A DNA stretch of 64,000 nucleotides from the IMG/VR virus record IMGVR_UViG_3300024346_000017, positions 49,109-113,108 of that record; one strand, written 5' to 3'. The notes under the pieces were generated by a model, which ran no database searches, was not told the DNA's origin, and worked only from the letters and a program-made list of their open reading frames with translations. This DNA comes from a virus. Position numbers and translations under genes: made by a program. The first letter of the stretch is position 1; each line of letters starts with the position of its first letter. Positions 1,637-59,365 of the stretch are shown here, in pieces.

Positions 1637-4117
1637 ATGTCAACAGTAAGAATTCAAGTACGTAGAGGTTTAGCTTCAGAATGGACCGCAGCAAATCCAG
1701 TATTGGCTGCAGGTGAAATGGGTGTTGAAACAAACACTAATTTATTTAAGTTTGGTAACGGGTCTTCTACATGGACTGCCCTTGCATATGCCAACAACTC
1801 AGATGTAGCAATTGGTGAAATTTCCCAAGACGCTATCAACACAGCCCTTACAATGGGTGCAGGTTTAACAAAGACTTATAACGATGGAGCAAATACAATA
1901 ACTATAACTGTTGATACAGATGTAGTTTCAACAAGAGCATTTGCTACAACAGCAGCAGGGACTGCACAGACTGCAGCAGAAGCAACCGCAGCAGCAGATG
2001 CAAGCACAAAGGCTTCAGCAGCACAAGCTGCAGCAATTGCAGCAGCTTCAGCAGATGCAAGCGCAAAGGCTTCAGCAACTCTTGCTTCAGCAACCGCAGC
2101 AGCAGCAGCATATACAGACTCTGCAGTAAATGGAGTAAATAACTCTCTTTCAGATTACCTAGAGGTAACAGAAAGAGGAGCAATGAATGGAGTTGCTTCC
2201 CTAGACGCAAATGTCAAGGTTCCACAAGCACAGCTTCCTTTAAATACTTTAACAACAAATATTAATACATCAGGAACAGTATCTGCAGCAACAGTAATGG
2301 CAGAAGATGTAACTTCAAGCGGTGTAGTAACAGCAAACAATGTAACTATTAGTGGAAACCTAACTGTAAATGGAACAACCACATCAGTAAATTCAACAAG
2401 CGTTACAATTGATGACCCAATGATTTATATTGGCGATGGCAATCAGTCAAACTCACTTGACCTTGGAGTTGTAGCAGCATTTAATGATGGCACATACCAG
2501 CATGCAGGTCTTGTTCGTGATGCTTCAGATCAAGGAATCTGGAAACTATTCTCAGGAGTAACATCAGAGCCTGGCACAACAGTAGATTTCACTACATATA
2601 CAAAAGATAAGCTAGAACTAGGAACTTTGTATGCAGATGCAGCAAGAATTGGATCAGTTACAAATCTAGAAATTCAGCACCTAGGAGGAGTTACTTCACC
2701 AATCCAGGCACAGCTTAATACCAAATTGGCTAGCGTACCTGATGATTCTGTTGGAACAGCTAAGATTCAAGCAGCTTCAGTAACTACTGCAAAAATTGCA
2801 GATGGTGCAATTGATACATCTAAAATTGCAGATGTTGCAGTAAGTACTGCAAAAATTGCAGATGGTGCAATTTTAACTGCAAAGCTTGCAGATGCTTCTG
2901 TAACTTCAGCAAAAATTCCAGCAAACACAATTTCTCAATCACATCTAAATGATGACGCAGTAGGAACTGCAGAAATTGTTGCACTTGCAGTAACTACCGA
3001 AAAGATTGCAGATGCTGCAGTAAGTACTGCAAAAATTGCAAATTCAGCAGTTACTACTTTAAAAATTGAAGATCTAGCAATCACAAATGAAAAGATTGCA
3101 ACAGCAGCAGGAATAGCTCAGTCAAAGATTTCTGGATTAACTGAAGCCCTAGCTACAAAAGCAACAATTGATTCACCAACATTTACTGGTGCAGTTGTTC
3201 TTCCAGCAACAACAACAATCGGTCTAGTTGATGCAACTGAAATGGGATACTTAAATGGTGTTACATCTTCACTTCAAACACAGCTAACAGCCCTTGGAAC
3301 AGCAGATTCAACACACGCAGCATTAACTGAAAATGTTCACGGCATTGCAAATACTGCAGCACTTGCAACAATGGCTTACGCTGATACAGCAGAAGCAGAC
3401 GCAATTACAGCAGCAGGTACAGCAGCAGATTCAAAGATTGCAACTGCAGTAGCAGCACTTACAAAGTCTTCAGTAGGACTTGCAAATGTTGATAATACAG
3501 CAGATGCATCAAAGCCAGTCTCTACAGCACAGGCTTCAGCAATCGCAACTGCTAAGTCAGAAGCAATTGCAGATGCAACTTCACAAGTAAATGCATTACT
3601 AACAGGAGCTCCAGCAGCACTCAATACACTTGATGAGCTTGCAGCAGCACTCGGAGATGATGCAAACTTTGCAAGCACAGTTACTACTAGCTTAGCAGCT
3701 AAAGCACCAATTGCTTCACCAACATTTACTGGAACAGTAACAGTTGCAGCAGCAGGAGTAGCGTTTGCAGATAAGACTCAGACAAAGGCAGGCGTACCTT
3801 CTCTCACATCAATTGCCACAGCAGTTTCAGCAAGCACAACACTAGATGCGCTTGGAACAGATGCAGCAGTAAGAGATTCACTAGTTCCTCTATCAGGAGC
3901 AGTAAACGTCAGCTTTGAAGCAACAGGAAATGCAAAGTATGAAATCGGTTCTTCAATCAGCTTCTACCAGTCAGCAGGAACTGGTGCTAATATAACTGGA
4001 TCTGGAGTTACAATTCTTGCGACACCAGGTGCAACATTAAGAACAACAAGTTCATCAGTAACAGCCACTAAGGTTGCAGCAACAACATGGTTGTTAGCTG
4101 GAGACCTAAGAGCATAA
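1637..4117 (+). CDS. Tail fibre with Mtd_N/hyaluronidase-type N-terminal domain
   Basis: RIQVRRG..SEW...NPVLAAGEMGVETNT..FKFGNG..W..L.Y; decapeptide AKIADxAV repeats; GAPAALNTLDELAAALGDDANF fibre motif. Confidence 0.8.
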   Translation: MSTVRIQVRRGLASEWTAANPVLAAGEMGVETNTNLFKFGNGSSTWTALAYANNSDVAIGEISQDAINTALTMGAGLTKTYNDGANTITITVDTDVVSTRAFATTAAGTAQTAAEATAAADASTKASAAQAAAIAAASADASAKASATLASATAAAAAYTDSAVNGVNNSLSDYLEVTERGAMNGVASLDANVKVPQAQLPLNTLTTNINTSGTVSAATVMAEDVTSSGVVTANNVTISGNLTVNGTTTSVNSTSVTIDDPMIYIGDGNQSNSLDLGVVAAFNDGTYQHAGLVRDASDQGIWKLFSGVTSEPGTTVDFTTYTKDKLELGTLYADAARIGSVTNLEIQHLGGVTSPIQAQLNTKLASVPDDSVGTAKIQAASVTTAKIADGAIDTSKIADVAVSTAKIADGAILTAKLADASVTSAKIPANTISQSHLNDDAVGTAEIVALAVTTEKIADAAVSTAKIANSAVTTLKIEDLAITNEKIATAAGIAQSKISGLTEALATKATIDSPTFTGAVVLPATTTIGLVDATEMGYLNGVTSSLQTQLTALGTADSTHAALTENVHGIANTAALATMAYADTAEADAITAAGTAADSKIATAVAALTKSSVGLANVDNTADASKPVSTAQASAIATAKSEAIADATSQVNALLTGAPAALNTLDELAAALGDDANFASTVTTSLAAKAPIASPTFTGTVTVAAAGVAFADKTQTKAGVPSLTSIATAVSASTTLDALGTDAAVRDSLVPLSGAVNVSFEATGNAKYEIGSSISFYQSAGTGANITGSGVTILATPGATLRTTSSSVTATKVAATTWLLAGDLRA
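2741..3100 (+). repeat. About 12 degenerate 10-aa repeats (D.AV.TAKIA)
   Basis: DDSVGTAKIQ/AASVTTAKIA/DGAIDTSKIA/DVAVSTAKIA... at 30-bp period. Confidence 0.85.
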
Positions 4118-4137: not shown

Positions 4138-4971
4138 ATGTCAAAAAATATAGGTAATAAAGCCGCCGCACAAGACAACTTCATTGGACCAAATGCTCCA
4201 ACTGGCTTAACTGCAACAAATGTTGGAGCTAACAGAGCATTTAACGATGGGCGTATTGATCTAGCATGGGTTGCACCAACTGGAGCAAATACTCCAACAT
4301 CATATAAGATTATGCGTGGTGGAGCAGAAATTGCAACAGTTTCTCACCCTACAGTAACTTATTCAAATACTGGACTAACATCAGCCACACTTTACTCTTA
4401 TACAGTAAGAGCAGCAGATGCTTATGGAACTTCAGCCGATTCAAACGCTGCAACAGCAACAGCAACAACAGTTCCTTCTGCTCCAACAAGTGCATCTGCA
4501 ACAGCAGGAGTTAATGCAAACACAGTTCAGTGGGCAGCGCCAGCAACTGGTGGAACTGCAATCACAAACTACTATGTTGTTGGAAATGATGCAACAACTG
4601 GAAATACTACTGGTTTATCTGTATCAATTGCAGATTCTGCAAATACATCTCAATACTATAACGTATATGCAGACAATGCTAATGGAAGATCAGCTGCATC
4701 AAATAACACTAATACTGTTACTACACTTGCACCTACTTTCTTCGCACCACCGTTTTTCCCACCATTCTTTCCACCAAGCTTCTTCGCCCCACCAGGGTTC
4801 TTTGCCCCACCAAGCTTCTTTGCACCGCCAGTGTTCTTTGCCCCACCAGGGTTCTTTGCACCGCCAGTGTTCTTTGCCCCACCAGGGTTCTTTGCACCGC
4901 CAGTGTTCTTTGCGCCACCAAGCTTCTTTGCGCCACCAACATTTGGCTCACGTTTTATCAGATCGTATTAA
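4138..4971 (+). CDS. Two-FN3-domain protein with C-terminal (x-FFAPP)n Pro/Phe repeat tail
   Basis: FN3 hallmarks (PNAPTGL..IDLAW.AP...SYKI; PSAP..VQWAAP..GG..ITNY; YNVYA.NANG.SA.S); SD AGGAGA; tail with 10 FFAPP and 2 FFPP. Confidence 0.85.
   Translation: MSKNIGNKAAAQDNFIGPNAPTGLTATNVGANRAFNDGRIDLAWVAPTGANTPTSYKIMRGGAEIATVSHPTVTYSNTGLTSATLYSYTVRAADAYGTSADSNAATATATTVPSAPTSASATAGVNANTVQWAAPATGGTAITNYYVVGNDATTGNTTGLSVSIADSANTSQYYNVYADNANGRSAASNNTNTVTTLAPTFFAPPFFPPFFPPSFFAPPGFFAPPSFFAPPVFFAPPGFFAPPVFFAPPGFFAPPVFFAPPSFFAPPTFGSRFIRSY
4738..4941 (+). repeat. 18-bp coding tandem repeat with perfect 36-bp higher-order unit (4816-4913)
   Basis: ttctttgcaccgccagtgttctttgccccaccaggg at 4816 and 4852, partial at 4888. 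Confidence 0.95.
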
Positions 4972-4982
4972 TAATATACAAA

Positions 4983-5012
4983 ACAATAGCAAGGGGCAAC
5001 CCTTGCTATTGT
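4983..5012 (+). terminator. Perfect 13-bp hairpin with GCAA tetraloop
   Basis: acaatagcaaggg-GCAA-cccttgctattgt, just after stop 4971. Confidence 0.75.
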
Positions 5013-5037
5013 GCTATATAAATATAAATGATACAAT
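5009..5037 (+). promoter_or_regulatory. sigma70-type promoter for the oxygenase operon (leaderless)
   Basis: TTGTGC-17-TACAAT with TG extension; ATG 5044 is 6 nt after the -10; no SD. Confidence 0.7.
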
Positions 5038-5043
5038 TTGTAT

Positions 5044-5748
5044 ATGACAAATATAAATGAATCTTTTAGCTTTTCTTCTAAAGAACAGCTTTTCCCAGGC
5101 GTATGGGTTTACAGAAATGTAATTAAGAACGACCTTGATATTATTAATAGGCTCAATGAAATTGGCGAATCTGCCATAAGCGAGAACGATACAAGATACG
5201 CATGGACGTTTGGCTTTGTTGGGTATAGCGAAAAAAGACCATCATACAGAGACTGTGAAGACATTAAAGTCGGAGAAATTAAAAACCCTAGATCTAAAAC
5301 AGAGCAATTAGTTTCTAGTTTGTGGACAGATTTAAAAAAATCACAGTCCCCAGCTGTTGAAGACTATTGCGGAATGTATAATGTAAAAATGGATTACTGG
5401 GAAGTAATGAACTGCATCAAATATGGAAAGGGACAACATTTCCAAGAGCATGCAGACCATGGGTTCTCTTATAGCGCTACAGTTTCATTAGTTGCATACG
5501 TAAACGACGACTATGAAGGCGGAAACTTATATTTCCCTAAGCTTAATCTAGATATTAAGCCAAAAGCTGGAGACCTATATATATTCCCATCAACATATTT
5601 ATTTTCACACAGGGCAATGCCAGTTGATTCTGGAATGAAGGTTTCAATTGTAACTATGCTAGATTATAATGATCATGCTCATAGACAAGAGTTTATGCAG
5701 ATGAGAGCTAACTGGTTAGAGCAAGACGCACAAGCTGGCAAGAACTAA
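5044..5748 (+). CDS. 2OG-Fe(II) dioxygenase, prolyl 4-hydroxylase-like (#1)
   Basis: HAD...YVNDDYEGGNLYF...HRAMPV..GMK (HxD...H triad, Lys as 2OG ligand). Start moved to ATG 5044. Confidence 0.85.
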   Translation: MTNINESFSFSSKEQLFPGVWVYRNVIKNDLDIINRLNEIGESAISENDTRYAWTFGFVGYSEKRPSYRDCEDIKVGEIKNPRSKTEQLVSSLWTDLKKSQSPAVEDYCGMYNVKMDYWEVMNCIKYGKGQHFQEHADHGFSYSATVSLVAYVNDDYEGGNLYFPKLNLDIKPKAGDLYIFPSTYLFSHRAMPVDSGMKVSIVTMLDYNDHAHRQEFMQMRANWLEQDAQAGKN

Positions 5749-5749
5749 A

Positions 5750-6472
5750 ATGTATAATATAGAGGCATACTTTGTTAGAGAAGGGTTTGGCCAAGTTAGC
5801 CCTCTATCAGTAAAGAGAGACTGGATGGATCAAACATTTGACGCACATGCCTATAAGTGTTTCCCAGTCAGCCTAACTAATCAATTGGGTTGGGGTATAT
5901 CTTTTCCAGAAGACATATCATTTATTTGGGATGGAATTACAGATAGCAGTCCAGATCATGTAAAAATATTGTCTGGAGAAAAATATGCATATGCTGGTAG
6001 AGCAAATGCAACAATCAGCTTTAATACTGGAATAATGTTTAAGACTGACGAAAACTCAACTTTAATGTCTATGCCTGTACCCAATCTTTTTATTGATGGC
6101 GCAACCCCTTTTACTACATTAATCAGTACATCTTTTTATAGAGGAGAGCTACCAGCAGCCTGGATGATAACAAAAGCAAATGAAGTTATAACCATTAAAG
6201 CTGGAACCCCAGTAATATCAGTAATGCCAATAAATTTAGATTCAATTAATAACTCAGAGATGCAGTTTAAAGAATTATCATCTCTCCCAGAGCCTTTGTT
6301 TGACTCTACAGAATATTCTAATGTTATATATGACTTAAATAGAACCGCAACATGGTCCAATTTTTATAGAGATGCAGTAGATCATTTAAAGAGAAAAATT
6401 GGATCTCACCAAGTAAAGGCAATAAGACTAAAAACAAATAATGATATAATGAATAAAGGAGGAAGCAAATGA
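5750..6472 (+). CDS. DUF6065-like protein
   Basis: RDWMD.T...HAYKCFPV...NQLGW...P....IWDG signature; ITIKAGTPV..VMPI dUTPase-like strand. Confidence 0.7.
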   Translation: MYNIEAYFVREGFGQVSPLSVKRDWMDQTFDAHAYKCFPVSLTNQLGWGISFPEDISFIWDGITDSSPDHVKILSGEKYAYAGRANATISFNTGIMFKTDENSTLMSMPVPNLFIDGATPFTTLISTSFYRGELPAAWMITKANEVITIKAGTPVISVMPINLDSINNSEMQFKELSSLPEPLFDSTEYSNVIYDLNRTATWSNFYRDAVDHLKRKIGSHQVKAIRLKTNNDIMNKGGSK

Positions 6473-7143
6473 AACCATCAAACGACTGGGGCAATAATGC
6501 TCCTATATCTATAACCCCCTCTGGCTTTTTTGGAAACTCTTCTTCCAATATTATAGAAATTAAAGACTTCCTTTCTTTGGCGGAAAGAGAAAGACTTATG
6601 GACTTTGCTTTAAACAATAAAATTTGGGATATAACAGAAACTCATCGTGATGCAGACGGACTAGTTTTATATGATCATAAAATTTGGGAAGACAGAGTAT
6701 GTACTTATAACTCTCTTATGGCATCCGATCCAGGCATACTTGAGCTTATCTACAGTATGATCGATAGATTAAAAATAGAAGTAGATGCATTTTTTAGTGT
6801 AGATGCAAAAGAAACTGGTCCAGCAATTGTTCGTTGGCCTGTTGGCGCAAGACAAGAACCCCATGCAGATAAAGAATTTCATGCTGGTCCAGAAAAAGGA
6901 AGGGCTAACGATTTCCCATGGTATGATTTAGCTGGATTATTTTATTTTAACGATGACTATGAAGGAGGAGAACTTTATTTCCCTCAGCATGGCATTGAGT
7001 TTAAACCAGTTGCAGGAGCAGCATATTTTTTCCCAGGCGATATGAATTATACGCATGGAGTCCGCCCAGTAAAGTCTGGGAATAGGTTTACATCACCATT
7101 TTTTTGGACTATAAAAAAACATACAGGAGAAAAACAGCCATGA
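6469..7143 (+). CDS. 2OG-Fe(II) dioxygenase, P4H-like (#2)
   Basis: PHAD...YFNDDYEGGELYF...HGVRPV.SG.R; ATGA-coupled. Confidence 0.85.
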   Translation: MKPSNDWGNNAPISITPSGFFGNSSSNIIEIKDFLSLAERERLMDFALNNKIWDITETHRDADGLVLYDHKIWEDRVCTYNSLMASDPGILELIYSMIDRLKIEVDAFFSVDAKETGPAIVRWPVGARQEPHADKEFHAGPEKGRANDFPWYDLAGLFYFNDDYEGGELYFPQHGIEFKPVAGAAYFFPGDMNYTHGVRPVKSGNRFTSPFFWTIKKHTGEKQP

Positions 7144-7958
7144 GTAAATTAGAATATGTAGAGCTTTATCCAAAAGTAGATATCTATAGAAATGTTTTAA
7201 AAGACCCAAACCAGCTATATGCAGTAATGAATGAATCTGAAAAGACATCAGAAGGAAAGTACTTTTTAAAAACATGGGATCCGTGGGCGCACTTTGGAAC
7301 ATACACACAAAAAAAGGACCCAAGAGAAGTTTCTGCTGAAATTCAAAAAGAAGAGATGTTTATTAAAGAAAAACAATTTGTTGAAGAAGTTGAAGAAGCT
7401 TACAACAAGGTTGTATTAGATTATGTAGAAAGACACGGCATTGATTTGCCAGACGGATGGCATTTTAGTGGTTGCTCCTATTCAAAATATCACGCAAACA
7501 TTGATACGCTAAATAATAGCATGACAATGCAATATCATACAGACCATATAACCTCTCAAAAAGATATGCCTGGAGATAAGTTTTCTATAACATGTACCAT
7601 GTACATTAATGATGATTATGAAGGCGGAGACATTGAGTTTTATGTTGATGGAAATCTTATTAATCACAAGCCTCAAGCAGGAGACATTTTGGTTTTTCCA
7701 TCTACAGAGCCATATTTTCATGGAGTAAAAACAATTAACACTAATGAAAAATTCTTTGTCAGAAACTTTATTATGACTCCACACAATGGCACAGAAGAAT
7801 GGCTTGCGAATCAAAGAAAATTTGGTGCTTACAGATGGGCAAAAATGGAACAAGAAAGAATAGACCACGACGATAAAAGAAATATGGTTTATTTTGCAGA
7901 CGGCAAGCCTATATCATACGAAGACTATATGAGCACAAACAAGGGCAAAGGTAAATAA
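7140..7958 (+). CDS. 2OG-Fe(II) dioxygenase, P4H-like (#3)
   Basis: YHTD...YINDDYEGGDIEF...HGVKTI...K; start at ATGA overlap 7140. Confidence 0.85.
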   Translation: MSKLEYVELYPKVDIYRNVLKDPNQLYAVMNESEKTSEGKYFLKTWDPWAHFGTYTQKKDPREVSAEIQKEEMFIKEKQFVEEVEEAYNKVVLDYVERHGIDLPDGWHFSGCSYSKYHANIDTLNNSMTMQYHTDHITSQKDMPGDKFSITCTMYINDDYEGGDIEFYVDGNLINHKPQAGDILVFPSTEPYFHGVKTINTNEKFFVRNFIMTPHNGTEEWLANQRKFGAYRWAKMEQERIDHDDKRNMVYFADGKPISYEDYMSTNKGKGK

Positions 7959-7959
7959 C

Positions 7960-8712
7960 ATGGAAAGAAATATGATTATAACTAGACACAAGCCAGATAT
8001 CGTACAGTATGATAATTTTTTAACTCCAGATGAGTGTAAATCTATCATAGATGTTTTGGCCATCAAAATGGAAAAGGATCAACTTAGATGGATGCCAATT
8101 TCATTTTATGAATCATATTCATCTGGAACCCCAGAGCTAAATGATCCAGATACAATTGCTTCTGGTCTTCCAGGAGATTTTTTTCAAGACTTAAGACAGA
8201 GAGTTATAAACGCAACTGCAGATATGGCTGGTAAATCTCCAGAACAAATGTCTCAAATAAGCTGGCACTCTCAAAGATGGGCACCAGGAGCATTTGCAAA
8301 TATGCATTCTGATAACACATCTAATGATGGTGTATCTGGTGCATTTACTAGAAGCAGATATGCAACATTCCTTTATTTAAATGACGACTTTGAAGATGGT
8401 GTTTTAAACTTTAAACATGGGCTTACAATTGTTCCTAAGACGGGAACCCTTGTAACTTTTGCTGGAGGATTTGATAACATGCATGAGGTTACAACTGTCA
8501 AAAAGTCTATTCGATATACCCTTGGTTCATTTTGGGACGATAGAGAAGAAAGCGATTATCCGCAAGAAGTAAGAGATGCTTGGGCGGAAGAGCTTGCAAA
8601 AGTCAGAGCAATTCAAAAAGATGAGGCAGCAGAATGGGAAGATTATAGAAAAAGAGGAGTAAGAATAACTCCACGAGGAGAACAATACCCAGCTTCTGAA
8701 GTGGAAGGCTAA
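7960..8712 (+). CDS. 2OG-Fe(II) dioxygenase, P4H-like (#4)
   Basis: DNFLTPDEC; MHSD...YLNDDFEDG.L.F...HEVTTV....R. Confidence 0.85.
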   Translation: MERNMIITRHKPDIVQYDNFLTPDECKSIIDVLAIKMEKDQLRWMPISFYESYSSGTPELNDPDTIASGLPGDFFQDLRQRVINATADMAGKSPEQMSQISWHSQRWAPGAFANMHSDNTSNDGVSGAFTRSRYATFLYLNDDFEDGVLNFKHGLTIVPKTGTLVTFAGGFDNMHEVTTVKKSIRYTLGSFWDDREESDYPQEVRDAWAEELAKVRAIQKDEAAEWEDYRKRGVRITPRGEQYPASEVEG

Positions 8713-8713
8713 T

Positions 8714-9364
8714 ATGCAAAACGATGTTGATTTTAAACAATTTACAATGTTTAACGTACACGCACTAGACCCAAATATTTGGTATTGGGAAAATGTTCTT
8801 AGCTATCCAAAAGAATTAAATAGCTTTATAGAAGAAATAGATTCTATTCCAGAATCATATTCAAGAATTTCAAAATGGGAAAACTGGTCTGCAAGTAATG
8901 ATGAGTCTTTAATTTATGGCGCAACAAAAAATATATTTAGATCTAAGCTAAAAGAAACTACTGGCTCTGACGCAGTTGATAAAAAAACATTGTACATTGC
9001 AAACAGCTTTATCATGGCAGCTGAAATGTGCTCAGATAGGTATTTTGCGAGTCACGGATTAGATAAAAATAATTACAATTTAGAAATAAATCAAATTCCA
9101 ATTAAAAAATGGAATCAAGGACAATCAATGGGCCCACACTTTGATGGTCAAGATGGAAATAAAGACTTAGCCTTCTCTCTTGTAACTTATATAAATGACG
9201 ACTACGAAGGTGGAGAAATTCATTTTCCAAATCAAAATGTTACGTTAAAGCCAGCAGCTGGAAGCTTAATAATGTTTCCATCTCAAGAGCCATATATCCA
9301 CGAAGTAAAACCTATTATTTCTGGAACAAGATACATGAGTCCAGCACACGTATATATTAAATAG
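8714..9364 (+). CDS. 2OG-Fe(II) dioxygenase, P4H-like (#5)
   Basis: PHFD...YINDDYEGGEIHF...HEVKPIISGTR. Confidence 0.85.
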   Translation: MQNDVDFKQFTMFNVHALDPNIWYWENVLSYPKELNSFIEEIDSIPESYSRISKWENWSASNDESLIYGATKNIFRSKLKETTGSDAVDKKTLYIANSFIMAAEMCSDRYFASHGLDKNNYNLEINQIPIKKWNQGQSMGPHFDGQDGNKDLAFSLVTYINDDYEGGEIHFPNQNVTLKPAAGSLIMFPSQEPYIHEVKPIISGTRYMSPAHVYIK

Positions 9365-9369
9365 ATAGG

Positions 9370-9378
9370 TGGTATAAT
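9370..9378 (+). promoter_or_regulatory. Extended -10 promoter TGGTATAAT (leaderless)
   Basis: ATG 9385 is 6 nt downstream of the -10. Confidence 0.65.
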
Positions 9379-9384
9379 AAAAAA

Positions 9385-10497
9385 ATGAGCACAACAGGCA
9401 AGGGCTTTAGATACCCAGTATACACAGACACCCCAGACGTACCCAGAGACCTCGGATACCTTGCTGCTGACGTAGATGCCTACCTAGATGCTCATCCAGG
9501 CCCACAAGGGCCTTCAGGAACCCTATCAGTAGGCTCTGTAACTACAGTTAGCGCTTCTACTCCAGCATCTGTTGTTAATGTTGGAACAGCATCAGCAGCT
9601 ATATTAAATCTAACTTTACCAAGAGGTATTGATGGAATTATTGGTGGTCCAGGCCCTTCTAATGTATTAAGCATTGGAACAGTAGAGCAAGGCGGATCTG
9701 CCTCAGCAACAATTACTGGCACATCACCAACACAGACATTAAATTTAGTTTTGCCACAAGGGCCCGCTGGCCCAACTGGACCGCAGGGGCCGCAGGGCCC
9801 AACTACTTTAGCAGTAGGAACTACCACCACTAGTTTGCCTGGAACAAATGCATCAGTAACAAATACTGGAACTTCAACAGCAGCAGTATTTGCATTTACA
9901 ATTCCAAGAGGCGCAACTGGAGCAACTGGAGCAACAGGCCCGCAAGGAATTCCTGGATCAAGCGCAACAATAGATCCAGTACCAACTACAATATCTTTAA
10001 ATATCCCAACTACGGCAGGGTATGGAGTAAATTCAAACTGGTACCCACTTGCAAATAATTTATACTCTATTGGACAACCAATCGATGCTCCATCAGGAGT
10101 AACTTCAAATAGATTTTGGAAAACAATATATTCTAATACTGGAACAATAAATACATCTGATCAAAGATTAAAAACAGATGTTATTAATTCTGCTCTAGGA
10201 CTTGATTTTATAAATAATTTAAATCCAGTAAGCTATAAGTTTATTGAAGGCGGAAAAGAAGTCGTTGATGGAGATTTAGTTTCTATACCTGGATCAAGAA
10301 CGCATTACGGACTTATTGCACAAGAAGTAAAAGAGGTTTTAGATGCATCTGGCGTAGAAGATTTTGCTGGATGGGTTAAGATGGATGTATCACAAGAAGA
10401 TTCTATGCAAGGCCTAAGATACGATCAATTCATTGCACCACTTATTAAAGCAGTACAAGAGCTTACAGCGAGAGTTAAAGCCCTAGAAGAGATTTAA
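9385..10497 (+). CDS. Collagen-like tail fibre with C-terminal peptidase S74 (intramolecular chaperone)
   Basis: Gly-X-Y runs (GPAGPTGPQGPQGP; GATGATGATGPQGIPG) between repeated L.VG.VTT...ASV.N.GT units; TSDQRLKTD...GLIAQEV...LIKAVQEL. Confidence 0.85.
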   Translation: MSTTGKGFRYPVYTDTPDVPRDLGYLAADVDAYLDAHPGPQGPSGTLSVGSVTTVSASTPASVVNVGTASAAILNLTLPRGIDGIIGGPGPSNVLSIGTVEQGGSASATITGTSPTQTLNLVLPQGPAGPTGPQGPQGPTTLAVGTTTTSLPGTNASVTNTGTSTAAVFAFTIPRGATGATGATGPQGIPGSSATIDPVPTTISLNIPTTAGYGVNSNWYPLANNLYSIGQPIDAPSGVTSNRFWKTIYSNTGTINTSDQRLKTDVINSALGLDFINNLNPVSYKFIEGGKEVVDGDLVSIPGSRTHYGLIAQEVKEVLDASGVEDFAGWVKMDVSQEDSMQGLRYDQFIAPLIKAVQELTARVKALEEI

Positions 10498-10500
10498 GAC

Positions 10501-12303
10501 ATGTCATATAAATATACTGTCTTAAAAGATAACCCAGTTGCATTTTTCTTATTGGATGAAGTTCGTTCTGGCGAAGCTGGTGTATACAGTAATTTAACTA
10601 CATTATATCCAACATATCAAGCTTTAAAAGATAACGGTGTTTCATATGCCGCAGTAAGCGGGCTGCCAATAATTGATTACACTGGAAACTCCATGGAGGG
10701 GTATGCAATTAATACTTCAGCCATGGAAGTTCTTCCTATTATTGGGGCGGGGGTAAGAGGAACAGAGATAAATGAAGATGCACAGATAAGCCTAAAAGCC
10801 CTAGGACTTGGTATGAATAGAAATCCAGACGGTCCATTCGCATTTGAAATATGGTTTAGTCCAGCTAAAGATGACAACTCAGAATATCTTATTATGGGAG
10901 ATGCAGAAAATTCAATTGGCCTATTCTATAAAAATGAAAACATTATTTTTAAATGTAGTCCAACACAGATGGTTTGGCATAAGATTACAAAAAATAAAGC
11001 CATGCATGTTGTAGGTATGTTTTCTAAAGATACAATTTCACTTTATGTTGATGGCAAAATTGTTTCTGAAAGTCCAGTTGCCGATAGCTTTAAATTTAAT
11101 AATACAAGCTTAAACCTATCCTTGGGACCAGCCAACGCAGGCAAAAAATTTATTGTTGATTCAGCAGCAATTTATGCCTATGAGCTAGAAGAAGCAAAAA
11201 TATTAAATCATTATCTGTCTGGATACAAAGAGACAAAGTACTCACAAATTGTTTATTCAAATAATGGAATTCTTTTTTCATTAAACTCGGCCTCAGTAAG
11301 ACCAGACATTTCATATAGGTATCCTGGAATAAAAGCACTAGAAGAGCTTGCCTCTGGAGATGCCTATTATAATTCAGAGTATAGCAGAATTGAGTTTGAA
11401 GAAACAGATGCCGTGGAAACAAAAACATTTTCTTTTCAAGAAAGATTGTATGTATCAAATCCAGAAGATATTGTTTCTTCTAGAATTTGCTATGGGCAGG
11501 ATGTAGACAATATTGTGGTTGAAATACAAATCCCAAATCAGCCATGGGTAGTTTGCAAAAATAATTCTCCAATGCCATACTACAACAAAAACCAGAACTC
11601 AGGAAGCCCAATATTAGATATAAGGGTAACAATGACGACACAGGATTCATCCTTCGACCTACCTTACTTTGATAAGCTAGAAATTGATATGTATTCAAAT
11701 AAAGATTTTTATGCAGATAATTCTGGATCAAAAATATACTCAGCATACGACTATGAAGTAGGACAATATAATTACCCAGTAAGAATGCAAAATAAATACA
11801 ACGGACTTTCAATGTATTCTGGCCATGGGTTTTCTGTAGATCTTTCTATTCAGCCAAGAACAATAGAGATGTTTTTTACTCCAAGGGGTGGACAAAATGT
11901 ATTATTTTCTTCAGCATCCTCATCAATTAAATGGGCGGCAAACGGAGTAATAACAAAAGCTGGCATTTCTGCTATATACGTAAATGGTATAAATAGGACA
12001 TCAGAGACTAATGTATCCACATTCTTGCTAAATGATGTTGCCCACCATATTGTAATTGTATTAAGTCAGTCAGCCCTAAATATTAAGTTTAATCAAAATC
12101 AATTAGATACGGAGTATGGAACTTCAAATCTATACAATAATATAGCTTTTTATGAGAAGGCATTTACCTCCGCAGAAGCAATAAATAACTACAGGCTCTA
12201 CTGCTCAGATAACTCAAAGGTTGTTACTGACCCAGGAGTGACTATATCTGAAAGTGCCCAAGGTCAGGACGGAACCTCATACTTCATAAGGTTATTTGAC
12301 TAG
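10501..12303 (+). CDS. LamG/concanavalin-A-like domain virion protein
   Basis: VLKDNPVAFF.LDE, FAFEIWF, HVVG....ISLYVDG, AIY.YEL..I.NHY. Confidence 0.7.
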   Translation: MSYKYTVLKDNPVAFFLLDEVRSGEAGVYSNLTTLYPTYQALKDNGVSYAAVSGLPIIDYTGNSMEGYAINTSAMEVLPIIGAGVRGTEINEDAQISLKALGLGMNRNPDGPFAFEIWFSPAKDDNSEYLIMGDAENSIGLFYKNENIIFKCSPTQMVWHKITKNKAMHVVGMFSKDTISLYVDGKIVSESPVADSFKFNNTSLNLSLGPANAGKKFIVDSAAIYAYELEEAKILNHYLSGYKETKYSQIVYSNNGILFSLNSASVRPDISYRYPGIKALEELASGDAYYNSEYSRIEFEETDAVETKTFSFQERLYVSNPEDIVSSRICYGQDVDNIVVEIQIPNQPWVVCKNNSPMPYYNKNQNSGSPILDIRVTMTTQDSSFDLPYFDKLEIDMYSNKDFYADNSGSKIYSAYDYEVGQYNYPVRMQNKYNGLSMYSGHGFSVDLSIQPRTIEMFFTPRGGQNVLFSSASSSIKWAANGVITKAGISAIYVNGINRTSETNVSTFLLNDVAHHIVIVLSQSALNIKFNQNQLDTEYGTSNLYNNIAFYEKAFTSAEAINNYRLYCSDNSKVVTDPGVTISESAQGQDGTSYFIRLFD

Positions 12304-12388: not shown

Positions 12389-12727
12389 ATGGAAATATTA
12401 AACCAAAAAAGCGAAGTTGTTGAAGAAACACGCCTAGGCATATACGTATGGGAAATGCCAGATGGGCGATGGATCGGAGACGATGATGGCAATTTTCTTT
12501 CAATAACATCTGTAAAAGGAAATAGATCTAGAATGAACGTTCTAGCTGATGCCGTAAGACACTATGGAATATATGAAGGAAAACCAAAGTTTCTGTCTGG
12601 AAGAAGAAAGATTGATGACGAAGAGTTTGAGTATCAAAACCAAAGACTTAAATGGGGACTTACACCAGACCCTCTTGATATCGGAGAATATAAAGACCAG
12701 GTTTTACGAGGGGGATCAGTAACATGA
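12389..12727 (+). CDS. Hypothetical protein upstream of portal
   Basis: Coupled to portal (ATGA); GIYVWEMPDG, GLTPDPLD motifs. Confidence 0.7.
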   Translation: MEILNQKSEVVEETRLGIYVWEMPDGRWIGDDDGNFLSITSVKGNRSRMNVLADAVRHYGIYEGKPKFLSGRRKIDDEEFEYQNQRLKWGLTPDPLDIGEYKDQVLRGGSVT

Positions 12728-49396: not shown

Positions 49397-49571
49397 TGAG
49401 TTTATTAATAATCCAAGTGTTGTTAGTAAAAAAAACTTAGAGTCAATACATGGAATTAAGCCATGCTCTAAATGTGATAAGGATGCAGAAGAAGCCTTTT
49501 GGGATCCAGAGTCTATGACGCTTGCATGGGAGTGTCCAGACGGACATCCTAACGAAATCAAGGTGCAGTAA
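49383..49571 (+). CDS. Zn-ribbon protein
   Basis: CSKC...W.CPDGH. Confidence 0.7.
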   Translation: MPNLNEFINNPSVVSKKNLESIHGIKPCSKCDKDAEEAFWDPESMTLAWECPDGHPNEIKVQ

Positions 49572-49572
49572 A

Positions 49573-50412
49573 ATGTCATATGCAGATATAGAAAAAATAG
49601 TAATTGCCCCTCAAATAGTTGTATACAAAAACATATTTAAGTTTAGTCAAGAGCTAATTGATTTGGTAGAAGAAGATATACCAGATTCAATTTTAGATCC
49701 ATGGAGAGAGTGGTACCATCAAGGCAAAAGAAAAGGAATGTTTTTTAATAGCAAGATGGATTTACATTCAGGAAATGAATTAGAAATTAAAGAAAAAAAA
49801 TACTTAAAAGAAATCTATGACATAACTAGGTTTATTAATAAAGATTATTTTAATGACTTTAAAGATATTGGCATATGGCCAAATTTTATTTTAGACTGGG
49901 ATAAACTAGAAGATATAGAAGATGAAATATACATAGACTACTTTAAGTATGAGTACGAAAAGCAAAAAGAAATTATTAGGGCTGAGGGCGAGCCTTTAAT
50001 GGATTACCACATTGATGAGTTACCAATACCAAATGAAATTAAGCATAGAAGACACGTTGCAACAATTAATTTTTATTTAAATAATAATTATTCTGGTGGA
50101 GATATATGCGTGTATGATGACGTTTCTAAAAAAAGCTATAGGTACAAGCCTATGCCAGGAGATGCAGTTATAATGCCGTCAACAGAGCCATTCTACCATG
50201 CAGTAAAACAATATTTTAATGCAGATAGATATTTTGCAAGAACTTTTTTAGATTATTTTTCTGACAAAAACATACCTTGGGAAAGCAAATACGTAGTCTC
50301 CAATCATAATAATTCTAATATGTCAGAATTTGATTATGTAGATAAAGATTTGCAAATAATAAAAATAGATGCAAATGAAATTATTATAGGAGAGGACTAT
50401 GATAGTGTCTGA
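49573..50412 (+). CDS. 2OG-Fe(II) dioxygenase, P4H-like (#6)
   Basis: YHID...YLNNNYSGGDI...PSTEPFYHAV.....R; resembles #3. Start revised to 49573. Confidence 0.8.
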   Translation: MSYADIEKIVIAPQIVVYKNIFKFSQELIDLVEEDIPDSILDPWREWYHQGKRKGMFFNSKMDLHSGNELEIKEKKYLKEIYDITRFINKDYFNDFKDIGIWPNFILDWDKLEDIEDEIYIDYFKYEYEKQKEIIRAEGEPLMDYHIDELPIPNEIKHRRHVATINFYLNNNYSGGDICVYDDVSKKSYRYKPMPGDAVIMPSTEPFYHAVKQYFNADRYFARTFLDYFSDKNIPWESKYVVSNHNNSNMSEFDYVDKDLQIIKIDANEIIIGEDYDSV

Positions 50413-50710
50413 AAGAGCAGAAGTAAAAAGAGATGGCGCAAAGGCTCAAAAAAATTCTGGAAGAGGAGACTATCAAAAAGGTGATGCACAATGGAATCAA
50501 TTTTTAGTTGATTATAAAGAGGCTGGATCAACATTTACTCTTAATAAAGACATATGGGCAAAAATATGCACTGACACTTTTAAGGTTAACAGAGATATGC
50601 ATCCAGCCTTAAAAATAATTATAGGTAAAGAAAACAAGGTCAGGCTTGGTATAATAGAGTGGGCAGTTTTAGAAGATCTAATAGAATTTTGGGAGAAAAA
50701 TAATGTATAA
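50399..50710 (+). CDS. PD-(D/E)XK Holliday-junction-resolvase-like nuclease
   Basis: NSGRG..QKGD......VDYKE. Confidence 0.7.
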   Translation: MIVSERAEVKRDGAKAQKNSGRGDYQKGDAQWNQFLVDYKEAGSTFTLNKDIWAKICTDTFKVNRDMHPALKIIIGKENKVRLGIIEWAVLEDLIEFWEKNNV

Positions 50711-51407
50711 GCTAGATGTGTATATAGATAATAAAGAAGCACCAACTGCAAAAATAAGACCACTTGTAATGCAAAGAGAGTGGATGCACGATACCACTTA
50801 TAATTGTGATCCAGTCGGAATGGCTAACACACTTGGATACGGAATCTATTTTGATGAGGATATTTCATTTATATGGAATGGAGTCAGAGCTGATCCAGCA
50901 ACTGCTATAACTGGAGGGGAACATATCTGGGTTGGCAGAGGAGAAGGAACTGTAAGCTTTATAACTAATCTACTTTTTAGAACAGATGAAAATACAAGTA
51001 TTTTAACTATGCCTGTACCAAATGAAAAAATAGAAGGAGCACAAGTTGTAAGCACAATACTATCAACCTCTGTTTTTACTGGAACTTTTTCTGTGGTATG
51101 GAAGCTCGATACACCAAACAAAGAATACTTTGTACCAGCTGGCACAAACATTGCCTGTATACTACCAATTTCATTAGGAGCCATACAAGATTCTGTTGTT
51201 ACAATTAAGAATACTCCCGCTACATTTGAAAGAATACATGACAATATAGATTATATAACATATTTAAAGGGTTTAAATGCAAAAGGGATAAGGCCAAGAA
51301 TGTATAAAAAGGCTATAGACCACACTGGAAGAATAATCGGCAAACATGAAGTTGCTAAAATTAAGCTTCATGTAAATTATGAAGAGGAAACTAAAGATGG
51401 AAGATAA
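50703..51407 (+). CDS. DUF6065-like protein (paralogue of 5750-6472)
   Basis: REWM...YNC.PV..ANTLGYGI.F.EDISFIWNG; FRTDEN.S.L.MPVPN shared. Confidence 0.75.
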   Translation: MYKLDVYIDNKEAPTAKIRPLVMQREWMHDTTYNCDPVGMANTLGYGIYFDEDISFIWNGVRADPATAITGGEHIWVGRGEGTVSFITNLLFRTDENTSILTMPVPNEKIEGAQVVSTILSTSVFTGTFSVVWKLDTPNKEYFVPAGTNIACILPISLGAIQDSVVTIKNTPATFERIHDNIDYITYLKGLNAKGIRPRMYKKAIDHTGRIIGKHEVAKIKLHVNYEEETKDGR

Positions 51408-53530: not shown

Positions 53531-54070
53531 ATGACAGAAATAGAGCCATCAATACATTTTGATAAGATGAATAAGGTTGTTTCCGAATTATTAAAGGGAA
53601 ACTCCGCCACTCAGATTGCCACAATAACTGGAATGACTAGAAAAGATGTCTTAGAGTATATTGATGAGTGGAAGTCCGTAGTCCACAATGATACCAACGT
53701 CCGAGATCGTGCTAGAGAAGCCTTAATGGGGGCAGACCAGCACTATGACATATTGATTAAAGAAGCGTGGAAAACAGTAGAAGATGCTGATACTCAAGGG
53801 CAACTCAACGTTAAATCTGGAACACTTAAGCTAATAGCAGACATAGAAACTAAAAGAATAGCCATGCTTCAGTCTGTTGGAATATTAGAAAATAATGAAA
53901 TGGCATCTCAAATATTGGAAACAGAAAGAAAGCAAGAGATGCTTGTAGGAATATTAAAAGAGGTTACTTCCAGCTGCAACCATTGTAAAATAGAAGTTGC
54001 AAAAAGGCTTTCTCAAATAACTGGTTTAGTTGAGCCAATAATAATTTCTCAAGAGGCTTCAGATGCTTAA
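53531..54070 (+). CDS. Probable terminase small subunit
   Basis: N-terminal HTH plus coiled coil, upstream of TerL. Confidence 0.6.
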   Translation: MTEIEPSIHFDKMNKVVSELLKGNSATQIATITGMTRKDVLEYIDEWKSVVHNDTNVRDRAREALMGADQHYDILIKEAWKTVEDADTQGQLNVKSGTLKLIADIETKRIAMLQSVGILENNEMASQILETERKQEMLVGILKEVTSSCNHCKIEVAKRLSQITGLVEPIIISQEASDA

Positions 54071-54662
54071 ACTTGAGGGATCAATAAAATTAGGCGAGGA
54101 CATACATGTATTCCCAAACTTTATATCACCCGAAGAATGCCAAGAGATAGTTGGCTTTATTGAATCAATACCCGAAAATATTTGGGAAGAGCACCTTAAT
54201 GAAGGTGGCCAAGGCTACGAGATAGCCTTTGTTGATGTAATTCAATTAAAAAAAATAAACAAAAAACTACAAGAACTTTTAGATAGCGATGTGTATTTAA
54301 ACACTTCTCTTTCTCCAACTAGAATGAAAAGGGGATTAATAGGAACGCACCACTCAGATGATTTTCAATTTTTAAACATAATAGAGGCAAATAAAAATCT
54401 TAAAGAAGAAGAAGAGTTTGAATTAGTAAGAAATAATATAGCTGGGTTAATTATGTACTTTAACGATTTTGAGGGAGGAGAGTTACATTATTCAAATCAA
54501 AATATAACTTACGCTCCAAAAGCTGGCGACCTACTAATACATAGCTCTAGTAATCATTGCAAGCATCAAGTACAAAAAATAAAAAGTGAAGTTAGATACT
54601 CTCACTCAGACAACCTATTTAGATATATTAAAGTCCCCAAAGGATTTAAAAATGTCATATGA
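54063..54662 (+). CDS. 2OG-Fe(II) dioxygenase, P4H-like (#7)
   Basis: NFISPEEC, HSD...YFNDFEGGELHY...KHQV......RYS. Confidence 0.8.
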   Translation: MLKLEGSIKLGEDIHVFPNFISPEECQEIVGFIESIPENIWEEHLNEGGQGYEIAFVDVIQLKKINKKLQELLDSDVYLNTSLSPTRMKRGLIGTHHSDDFQFLNIIEANKNLKEEEEFELVRNNIAGLIMYFNDFEGGELHYSNQNITYAPKAGDLLIHSSSNHCKHQVQKIKSEVRYSHSDNLFRYIKVPKGFKNVI

Positions 54663-59234: not shown

Positions 59235-59285
59235 AGCCCCGAACTCATAATTCGGTAGTCGTAGGTTCGAGTCCTACTTGGGACA
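59212..59285 (+). tRNA. tRNA with CAT anticodon (Ile2-lysidine type or elongator Met); CCA not encoded
   Basis: Acceptor GTCCCAA/TTGGGAC, D arm GCTC/GAGC, anticodon arm CCGAA-CTCATAA-TTCGG, T arm GTAGG-TTCGAGT-CCTAC. Confidence 0.9.
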
Positions 59286-59289
59286 CGAA

Positions 59290-59365
59290 GCCTTTGTAGC
59301 TCAGTGGATAGAGCAGCAGGTTTCTACCCTGCGTGTCGGAGGTTCGATTCCTTTCAGGGGCACCA
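59290..59365 (+). tRNA. tRNA-Arg(TCT) with encoded CCA
   Basis: GCCTTTG/CAGGGGC, GCAGG-TTTCTAC-CCTGC, GGAGG-TTCGATT-CCTTT, ACCA end. Confidence 0.9.

Follow-up and report, generated by a model that had tools for sequence, protein, structure and literature searches.

In their tail-fibre module, phages of a large uncultured lineage keep a conserved cassette that combines FF-tail proteins, which bear tandem x-F-F-z-P-P repeats, with oxygenases of the prolyl 4-hydroxylase (P4H) type and DUF6065. We put at about one in two the probability that this is a two-component cassette, FF-tail proteins on one side and P4H-type oxygenases with DUF6065 on the other, in which the oxygenases hydroxylate the FF tails. 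Because relatives possess either both the FF tails and the P4H-like cluster or neither, the phage probably hydroxylates its own virion proteins. An original prediction, made from the DNA, had proposed such a tailoring system. Genomic linkage, co-absence and likeness to P4Hs speak for this idea, whereas the presence of oxygenases elsewhere in the genome speaks against it. A collagen-like fibre, placed by that prediction at the other end of the oxygenase battery, is not a constant part of the cassette.

Results

Organization of the cassette

The copy analysed lies in a stretch of 64,000 nucleotides (the window) of IMG/VR record IMGVR_UViG_3300024346_000017. The lineage consists of WhiB-encoding siphophages of about 105-120 kb, and its host is presumably actinobacterial. 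Coordinates are collected in Table 1.

Table 1. Features of the cassette and its surroundings in the window.
Feature	Position	Strand	Basis or remark
Tail-fibre protein, 826 aa, Mtd_N N-terminus, Ala-rich repeats	1637..4117	+	Pfam Mtd_N 1.2e-13; PHROG tail-fibre families
FF-tail protein, 277 aa, proposed substrate	4138..4971	+	FN3 region, repeat, C-terminal peptide
Perfect 13-bp-stem hairpin	4983..5012		Between FF gene and oxygenase operon
O1, P4H-like 2OG/Fe(II) oxygenase	5038..5748	+	PF13640 4.5e-13; H138-x-D140, H191, K201
DUF6065 protein	5750..6472	+	PF19541 E 1.6e-28
O2, P4H-like oxygenase	6469..7143	+	PF13640; H132-x-D134, H196, R206
O3, P4H-like oxygenase, long C-terminal extension	7140..7958	+	PF13640; counted from ATG 7140
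O4, P4H-like oxygenase	7960..8712	+	PF13640; H116-x-D118, H175, R185
O5, P4H-like oxygenase	8714..9364	+	PF13640; H142-x-D144, H196, R206
Collagen-like fibre with C-terminal self-cleaving Peptidase_S74 chaperone	9385..10497	+	Pfam Peptidase_S74 6.8e-15; Gly-Pro-X runs
LamG/ConA-like protein, 600 aa, conserved downstream border of cassette	10501..12303	+	Pfam Laminin_G_3 1e-12; synteny
Second oxygenase (49522-50412) and second DUF6065 gene (50703-51407)	49522..51407	+	Distant from any FF gene
Further PF13640 oxygenase	54063..54662	+	Outside cassette

The sequence-level statements of the original prediction on positions 4138-10497 all hold apart from a promoter. They comprise an FN3 protein ending in 10 FFAPP and 2 FFPP units (Pfam fn3 and an exact unit count), a hairpin behind it, a tightly packed operon of five 2OG-Fe(II) dioxygenases with HxD...H and YxNDDxExG, two using Lys and three Arg (PF13640 and motif check), a DUF6065 gene inside that operon, and a Gly-Pro-X collagen-like fibre as the next gene. 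Gaps and overlaps between the genes from O1 through the LamG gene range from -4 to +20 nt. The LamG gene is followed by a 112-aa gene and then by the portal gene (12724-14307). At the other border, orthologues of the tail-fibre gene precede the FF gene in related loci.

The hairpin has no U-tract on the + strand; it could serve as a terminator or as an attenuator. A promoter had been placed ahead of O1. However, the 23 sigma-70-like matches found in the region are at chance level (21.9 expected from shuffling), and none lies on the + strand at 4972-5037, so this element is not upheld.

Five diverged oxygenases of the prolyl-hydroxylase type

PF13640 scores of O1-O5 (33-50 bits) are all above the gathering cut-off of 27 bits, and HxD, Y[IVFL]NDD[YF]E[GD]G and H-x9-[K/R] are present in each of the five proteins. 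As basic 2OG ligand, 10 residues past the distal His, O1 and O3 have Lys, whereas O2, O4 and O5 have Arg. The iron triad and the 2OG-ligand residues are invariant in the orthologue alignments, as are H, D, H and K within the O3 orthogroup. An alternative start of O3 is the TTG at 7104. The paralogues share 25-40% pairwise identity, and each has its own orthologues across loci (24-100% identity, medians 47-74% per orthogroup). Judged from their sequences, O1-O5 are five anciently diverged orthogroups of prolyl-hydroxylase type.

Comparison with solved P4Hs covered O1 and O2 by sequence and, among the five, O1 by fold. The nearest solved protein to O1 by sequence is the Bacillus anthracis P4H (BaP4H; 3e-7), which is also the best match of the O2 orthologue profile (2e-11), followed by human P3H1 (2.7e-9) and C-P4H alpha-2 (8.7e-4). 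In the case of the O1 AF2 model (pLDDT 92.8), the top Foldseek matches are all P4H or PHD enzymes (E about 2e-10, TM 0.5-0.66), the nearest folds being CrP4H, BaP4H, PHD2, PBCV-1 vCPH and C-P4H-II. The predicted kinship with prolyl hydroxylases is thus supported by sequence for O1 and O2 and by predicted fold for O1.

The original prediction saw an oxygenase battery at one spot. A cassette of five does exist there, but the enzymes are not confined to it: the genome encodes 12 oxygenases of the P4H type spread across four regions, 7 of them outside the cassette and far from any FF gene. The same is true of two of the three DUF6065 genes.

The FF-tail proteins and their repeat

FF-tail proteins consist of binding-type N-terminal domains, a run of x-Phe-Phe-(Ala/Ser/Gly)-Pro-Pro units and a C-terminus that is either a short aromatic/basic peptide, as in the window, or a Hint domain, as in most relatives. 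In the window's protein the FN3 region (Pfam fn3, E 2.3e-7) precedes the repeat, (x-F-F-A-P-P)x10 with two FFPP units (DNA 4735-4938), and the peptide TFGSRFIRSY (4939-4968); an 18/36-nt tandem array was detected at 4771-4938 (TRF). A second FF-tail protein of 794 aa, encoded just upstream of the window, bears the same tail behind Ig- or PASTA-like N-terminal modules. The final 15 residues of the two proteins are identical, and the DNA encoding them differs by seven synonymous changes and the stop codon.

Across relatives, position 1 of the repeat hexamers (n=1136) is Gly in 48% and G/S/A in 73%, and at position 4 the shares are 69% Ala, 20% Ser and 8% Gly. Tetramer units (n=107) break the hexamer register. 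A collagen-like triple helix was considered for the FF repeat and rejected, as these 1136 hexamers and 107 tetramers fail the test of Gly at every third residue.

Linkage of repeat and oxygenases in related phages

At least 117 IMG/VR loci contain the FFxPP repeat, and among relatives there are at least 107 distinct carriers. P4H-like oxygenases were present in the fetched flank of 102 of the 117 loci and DUF6065 in 90. The linkage proposed as a check, that FFxPP-tailed genes adjoin P4H-like and DUF6065 clusters, is therefore seen in about 100 related loci, most of these data deriving from one phage lineage with conserved synteny. Gene order is fixed (fibre, FF gene, O D O O O O, with O for oxygenase and D for DUF6065), and there are one to three DUF6065 proteins per cassette. 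Additional members of some cassettes are a sulfotransferase, a protein of the Asp/Asn-hydroxylase family or a short-chain dehydrogenase; AurF-like genes occur among the variants too. The repeat is restricted to viruses: 596 Gb of prokaryote DNA gave only 5 chance-like matches to the FFxPP pattern, in high-GC genomes. Neither FFxPP proteins nor DUF6065 were found in cultured phages.

Co-absence was assessed among phages with portals at least 76% identical. All 16 related records without the cassette, some of them 60-91 kb long, have no FFxPP anywhere and 0-1 PF13640 gene. Counts of 5-10 oxygenases were obtained for the 9 records whose FF gene is resolved and matches the FFxPP pattern, and likewise for three more cassette records (G026, with an FFPP/HFPP/YFPP variant, and the fragments G027 and G028). 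The cassette label cannot be fitted to the portal tree with fewer than 3 changes, 2 of which are forced by well supported branches. Gain, loss or exchange has affected the cassette on at least 2-3 occasions, each time as a whole, and such co-transfer is partly automatic because recombination swaps adjacent genes together. The pairing is also kept in the rearranged genomes L101, L046 and L097, with minimal FF proteins of 116-138 aa.

These data bear on a reading in which the oxygenase/DUF6065 cluster is accessory cargo of a hypervariable fibre module, paired with FF genes by block inheritance only and acting on host proteins (EF-Tu or ribosomal-type prolyl hydroxylation), envelope components or small molecules. 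The 12 oxygenases in four genome regions are consistent with it, as are the many 2OG oxygenases of cyanomyoviruses (PMC3037559), the presence among structures matching O1 of a prolyl hydroxylase-EF-Tu complex (4iw3) and of an enzyme reported to modify EF-Tu (5v7y), and the sulfotransferase, short-chain dehydrogenase and AurF-like genes, which would fit chemistry on small molecules or glycans too. However, the count of 0-1 oxygenase in close relatives lacking FF tails applies to the entire record and not just to this site, the pairing survives rearrangement, the order from FF gene to O1 is fixed in an operon tightly packed with fibre genes, and the five orthogroups are kept down to about 30-50% identity. 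We consider accessory cargo somewhat unlikely.

The collagen-like fibre might instead be the main substrate, as in collagen P4H systems, with the FF tail unrelated. Its gene begins 20 nt after O5, it contains Gly-Pro-X runs and a clear Peptidase_S74 domain (55.6 bits against a cut-off of 22), and BaP4H, which O1 and O2 match best in sequence, is a procollagen-proline dioxygenase according to its deposited entry. However, the collagen-like gene is missing in about half of fully bounded cassettes whereas an FF gene precedes all of them, cassette-less relatives bear several collagen-like fibres and no oxygenases, and the runs are short (18 residues) with Pro in the X position, not Y. This makes the fibre improbable as main target, although it may serve as a second substrate. 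Since about half of the cassettes do without the fibre, the constant partner is the FF-tail protein, and the position of the oxygenases "between Pro-rich substrates", on which the original prediction had dwelt, appears incidental.

Co-variation of repeat type with oxygenase set, also suggested earlier, is hinted at. FGFTP repeats accompany only 1-2 oxygenases, FFPP/HFPP/YFPP repeats accompany about 7 cassette oxygenases, and a doubled O1 goes with FFSPP-rich tails (24/25 vs 13/55). However, this link between O1 number and Ser content is inseparable from shared ancestry: the tree shows only about 4 changes, and a sign test gives p = 1.

DUF6065 adopts a dUTPase-like fold

The AF2 model of DUF6065 (pLDDT 93.8) has a dUTPase-like fold at residues 1-170 and a helical C-terminus. 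When this single chain was compared with solved structures, the top 13 matches were dUTPases (VIA Z 10-10.8); sequence searches gave no significant match to dUTPases. A dUTPase assignment was rejected, the catalytic motifs (the Asp of motif III and others) being absent among 53 DUF6065 sequences, in which only P39, G47 and N112 are invariant. DUF6065-like genes also occur in the fibre modules of relatives without oxygenases. The fold could point to a nucleotide- or DNA-modification pathway, with DUF6065 binding nucleotide and the oxygenases oxidizing bases, but this is very improbable given the lack of conserved dUTPase motifs, the P4H type of the oxygenases, which gave no score against TET/JBP or AlkB families, and the location of the genes in the late structural operon, not the replication module.

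A Hint domain follows the repeat in most relatives

A Hint domain directly follows the repeat in 71 of 114 relatives; its N-terminal residue is Cys or Ser, and many of these domains have a C-terminal His-Asn. This nucleophile and the His-Asn are shared with bacterial intein-like (BIL/Hint) domains, and a profile of the relatives matches the BIL domain 2lwy at 5.6e-7, in addition to many inteins. The domain is predicted to be a self-removing C-terminal module, comparable to the intramolecular Peptidase_S74 chaperone of the neighbouring fibre. In contrast to BIL/Hint systems, the window's FF-tail protein lacks the domain and ends in its 10-residue peptide; it has lost, or never had, a Hint domain.

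The original prediction offered as its alternative a RiPP-like pathway with the tail as a multi-core precursor; in such a pathway the tail would be cut out and released. Tandem identical cores beside tailoring enzymes and the self-cleaving domain predicted in relatives would suit this, but it is highly doubtful: the N-terminus is a folded FN3 or Ig-type domain typical of virion decoration and not a leader, the Hint domain would cut once only, at the repeat end, which is a different kind of processing, and no leader-core precursor, protease, cyclase or exporter was recognized in the cassettes examined, several genes of which have no family.

Discussion

Under the two-component reading, the oxygenases would hydroxylate prolines, and perhaps other residues, in the tails of both FF-tail proteins late in infection. 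Before the proteins are built into the virion, hydroxylation would stiffen or stabilize a Pro-rich stalk, or provide sites to which further modifications can be attached. The paralogues may differ in the sequence context that they accept or in the position, for which the original prediction had named the first or second Pro, Phe and the variable residue, and the collagen-like fibre would be at most a secondary substrate. A more far-reaching version is possible but tentative: phages of Actinobacteria would run a multi-enzyme pathway on virion adhesins, in which FFxPP, a repeat not described before, is both recognition tag and substrate, the five paralogues hydroxylate it at several positions, in some phages the repeat is then sulfated or further oxidized, and the end is trimmed or anchored through a Hint thioester, giving a hydroxyproline-rich stalk resembling extensin or mussel adhesive.

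To our knowledge, structural proteins with hydroxylated prolines have been described only from eukaryotes and from a few giant viruses. Our literature search found no report of it for bacteriophage structural proteins. In Mimivirus, a 2OG oxygenase of the lysyl hydroxylase/glycosyltransferase kind modifies the virus's own collagen-like surface fibres; that system differs in that the virus is a giant eukaryotic one, lysine is modified, the collagen is true Gly-X-Y and a single bifunctional enzyme acts. We know of no proof of the in vivo substrate of the chlorovirus P4H either.

The chlorovirus enzyme, PBCV-1 vCPH (5c5t), is likewise a virus-encoded, monomer-sized P4H-type 2OG oxygenase with the fold of O1. 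Both vCPH and the algal CrP4H (2jig/3gze) use Lys as 2OG ligand, as do O1 and O3 but not O2, O4 and O5. Algal and plant P4Hs such as CrP4H act on Pro-rich repeats, and the phage genome also encodes Pro-rich tandem repeats. In contrast to these systems, the phage has a bacterial host and carries five diverged paralogues in one operon together with DUF6065 and one repeat family. BaP4H (3itq, 5hv0) and Pseudomonas PPHD (4iw3) resemble the phage oxygenases in being small, stand-alone and bacterial-type, but are single-copy cellular genes without linkage to a repeat-protein gene. T4-like cyanophages also carry many 2OG-Fe(II) oxygenase paralogues per genome, which are the only matches among cultured phages (about 29% identity). 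These have been treated as host-like genes with roles in DNA repair or 2OG metabolism, with no identified substrate (PMC3037559).

For prolyl hydroxylation of phage virion proteins, the cassette is a concrete candidate that is both abundant and easy to test. It delimits one family of substrates, the x-F-F-z-P-P tails, along with five orthogroups of enzymes and DUF6065, a Pfam family not yet characterised. Multi-copy 2OG oxygenases are a puzzle in aquatic phages, and the cassette would give them a first hypothetical substrate; it also points toward new chemistry in phage adhesins and fibres. As a natural set of paralogous hydroxylases, possibly differing in site specificity, it could also serve protein engineering.

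Organization of the cassette and its genome

The window comprises bases 49109-113108 of a 113,108-bp IMG/VR record that CheckV rates complete. All large genes of the window lie on the + strand, among them those for the portal, an HK97-type capsid protein (~58% identical to its Streptomyces phage counterpart) and a tape-measure protein of 3020 residues. An actinobacterial host is indicated by the WhiB protein that the genome encodes. Adjacent genes for tRNA-Met(CAT) and tRNA-Arg(TCT) are also present. A megablast search with the entire window as query returned no match.

The gene arrangement described in the original prediction was recovered, except for a promoter ahead of the operon, where promoter-like matches occur at no more than chance level. 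The FN3 open reading frame ends in 10 FFAPP and 2 FFPP units and a last peptide, TFGSRFIRSY, and is followed by a perfect 13-bp hairpin. The operon behind it consists of five PF13640 oxygenases (O1-O5) and one DUF6065 gene, tightly packed at spacings of -4 to +2 nt. Catalytic motifs are present in all five oxygenases (HxD, a YxNDDxExG-type strand and H-x9-K/R), the 2OG ligand being Lys in O1 and O3 and Arg in the other three. The next gene encodes the collagen-like fibre, which bears a Peptidase_S74 chaperone.

Coordinates of the cassette and of associated features (L numbers, related IMG/VR loci)
Feature	Coordinates	Remarks
FF-tail protein gene	window 4138-4971	277 aa
Hairpin 3' of FF-tail gene	window 4983-5012	
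O1-O5	window 5038-9364	
DUF6065 gene	window 5750-6472	between O1 and O2
Collagen-like S74 fibre	window 9385-10497	
LamG protein, then portal gene		downstream of collagen-like fibre
Tape-measure protein	window 21627-30689	
tRNA-Met and tRNA-Arg genes	window 59212-59365	
Second FF-tail protein	genome 45437-47821	794 aa; 1.3-3.7 kb before window start; orthologue L041:8933-11323
Zinc-ribbon-like protein	genome 47832-48029	65 aa; just after second FF-tail gene
Seven PF13640 and two DUF6065-like genes outside the fibre module	window 49522-51407, 54063-54662; genome 14718-19322, 36367-37215	
Sulfotransfer_2 and Asp/Asn beta-hydroxylase-family pair	L020:1508-2212, L020:958-1533	Hint-bearing relatives; also L036, L042, L048-L050, L092, L104, L128
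FF-tail orthologues of record G029	L212:1665-3023, L212:7223-10057	
FN3-rich frame with FFAPP repeat	L083:1-1009	cut by contig end

Identity of the oxygenases and of DUF6065

The best sequence match of O1 and of the O2 profile is the B. anthracis P4H (3e-7 and 2e-11, respectively), followed for the O2 profile by human prolyl 3-hydroxylase 1, PiuC and C-P4H alpha-2; matches of the O3 sequence are weaker. The top structural matches of the O1 model (pLDDT 92.8) are exclusively protein prolyl hydroxylases: CrP4H, BaP4H, PHD2, Dictyostelium PHD, PBCV-1 vCPH, Pseudomonas PPHD and human C-P4H-II.

In the DUF6065 model (pLDDT 93.8), residues 1-170 adopt a fold like that of dUTPases (Z 10-10.8), but the dUTPase motifs are missing. 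Searches of PDB sequences, with the sequence and with a profile, gave nothing significant, and the profile matched 2405 of 5.8 billion proteins, the best 120 of these 2405 all being unnamed and metagenome-derived. Relatives of the g037 type also occur in the fibre modules of oxygenase-free phages, so DUF6065 may be tied to fibres rather than to the oxygenases. A complex prediction for O1 and DUF6065, both supplied as alignments, scored 0.00, which counts neither for nor against an association. In three close cassette-less relatives (loci L213, L214 and L215 of records G012, G013 and G010), g037-type DUF6065-like genes adjoin fibre genes, and these fibre modules contain many Gly-rich and collagen-like proteins.

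Linkage of the repeat and the oxygenases

FF-tail genes had been expected to lie beside P4H-like and DUF6065 clusters in related phages, and they do. At least 117 loci were found. HMMs derived from the paralogues of this genome, applied to the fetched flanking DNA, detected at least one oxygenase in 102/117 and DUF6065 in 90/117. The gene order is fixed (fibre, FF-tail gene, oxygenase, DUF6065 and four oxygenases) and is often continued by a collagen-like fibre, LamG, a 112-aa gene and the portal. The window's paralogues share only 25-40% identity with each other; each is 24-100% identical to its own orthologues across loci, with orthogroup medians of 47-74%. As most of the loci share synteny with this genome, adjacency alone is largely inheritance.

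Three observations exceed plain adjacency: co-absence, changes on the portal tree, and pairing in a rearranged background. Portal relatives number 574 in IMG/VR, of which 80 were fetched, and the 9-10 kb upstream of portals at least 76% identical were inspected. These loci are of two kinds, 12 with FF-tail gene, oxygenases and DUF6065 together and 13 with none of the three within that distance. The whole records of the cassette-less relatives (16/16, several of them 60-91 kb) contain zero FFxPP repeats and 0-1 PF13640 genes. Each of nine records in which a resolved FF-tail gene matches the FFxPP pattern has 5-10 PF13640 genes, and so does each of three further cassette records (G026, which has a variant repeat, and the fragments G027 and G028). 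On the portal tree the cassette label requires at least three changes, of which well supported branches force two; one clade with both FF-tail gene and oxygenases branches within cassette-less phages, from which portal distances of ~0.03-0.05 separate it. In the rearranged background (L101, L046 and L097), which has a capsid of ~51% identity and head genes immediately upstream, the FF proteins are minimal (116-138 aa, without FN3) and still adjoin oxygenase and DUF6065 genes.

The main rival explanation is that the oxygenases act on other targets and travel with the fibre block. The genome carries 12 PF13640 genes spread over four regions, along with three DUF6065-like genes, and the oxygenases are therefore not restricted to the fibre module. 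Near the seven oxygenases and two DUF6065-like genes outside it, no Pro-rich repeat protein was seen.

The FFxPP repeat family

A degenerate DNA pattern of three FFAPP units identified the repeat in at least 117 IMG/VR loci. The same pattern gave only five matches in 596 Gb of prokaryote genomes, all out-of-frame-looking, in high-GC genomes and with no oxygenase nearby. The FFAPP repeat is a widespread, virus-restricted module. In tblastn searches of 50,697 cultured phage records, the FF-tail protein had FN3 matches only and DUF6065 had no match, while a search of cultured phages with O2 returned only cyanomyovirus oxygenases at ~29% identity. Multi-copy 2OG oxygenases are known from cyanomyoviruses and are unexplained (PMC3037559).

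A census of 107 distinct proteins yielded 1136 hexamers of the form x-F-F-z-P-P and 107 FFPP tetramers. Both Phe residues are essentially invariant; z is Ala (69%), Ser (20%) or Gly (8%), and x is Gly (48%), Ser (17%) or Ala (8%), the remainder being V/N/L/R/Q. The repeat is akin to the collagen triplet register yet fails to meet it. The idea of a disguised collagen triple helix (small-F-F-small-P-P) does not hold generally, given this census and the FFPP/HFPP and FGFTP variants.

The second FF-tail protein of the genome has Ig-like modules and two others that weakly resemble PASTA (sub-threshold Pfam PASTA match, 5e-4); its C-terminus consists of eight VFFAPP units and the decapeptide that also closes the window's FF-tail protein. 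The last 15 residues of the two proteins are identical despite seven synonymous changes and a different stop codon, which argues that the FF tail is a selected, shared C-terminal module. The small Cys-rich zinc-ribbon-like protein (CxxC...CxxC...C) encoded next to it is conserved both at this position and within fibre modules of relatives; L211 and L214 contain orthologues. The repeat is not always C-terminal: in L083 it is located close to the N-terminus of a long FN3-rich frame and is preceded by Pro5 runs.

In 71/114 relatives the repeat is directly followed by a Hint-type domain of ~165 residues, which starts with C(I/L)xxDT or Ser and in many copies ends in His-Asn. Its profile matches many inteins as well as 2lwy, a bacterial intein-like domain (5.6e-7); L021:3179-4774 is one example of a Hint-bearing relative. 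Judged from these matches, most family members would be made with a self-cleaving Hint domain, and the repeat would become the new C-terminus. The window's FF-tail protein differs in having a 10-residue aromatic/basic peptide in place of Hint.

Variation among cassettes and the candidate substrate

In some cassettes the FF-tail gene and O1 are separated by genes for a member of the Sulfotransfer_2 family (27 bits) and one of the Asp/Asn beta-hydroxylase family (4e-11), a pair whose family assignments suggest further modification steps. Others carry a short-chain dehydrogenase, an HD-domain protein or a weak AurF-like protein. With these variable extra enzymes, the locus behaves like a variable tailoring battery.

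The proposed co-variation of repeat type with oxygenase set is hinted at in three cases. In G026, a complete genome without the strict pattern, the orthologues of both FF-tail proteins have tails of FFPP/HFPP/YFPP tetramers, and the adjoining cassette has ~7 oxygenases. In another complete genome, G029, both orthologues carry (FGFTP)9 and then a Hint-like domain starting with Ser; P4H-like genes number only 1-2 in its cassette, which otherwise contains a short-chain dehydrogenase and unassigned genes. FFSPP-rich tails occur in 24/25 cassettes with two O1 copies as compared to 13/55 with one, a link that is indistinguishable from ancestry because the tree permits only ~4 changes.

The battery was also predicted to lie between two Pro-rich genes. 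This holds in the window, but of the fully bounded cassettes roughly half lack the collagen-like S74 fibre. Cassette-less relatives have several collagen-like fibres and no oxygenases. As the constant neighbour, the FF-tail protein is taken as the primary candidate substrate. The best reading, to which we give about an even chance (probability near 0.5), is that the P4H-type oxygenases serve to modify the FF tails of adhesin-like proteins associated with the virion. In the paper library searched, queries on DUF6065, phage virion hydroxyproline and phage proteins combining Hint and FN3 returned nothing relevant to the arrangement. As a kind, the cassette would be a variation on viral P4H enzymes that modify Pro-rich repeats of the virus itself, and it is amenable to direct testing.
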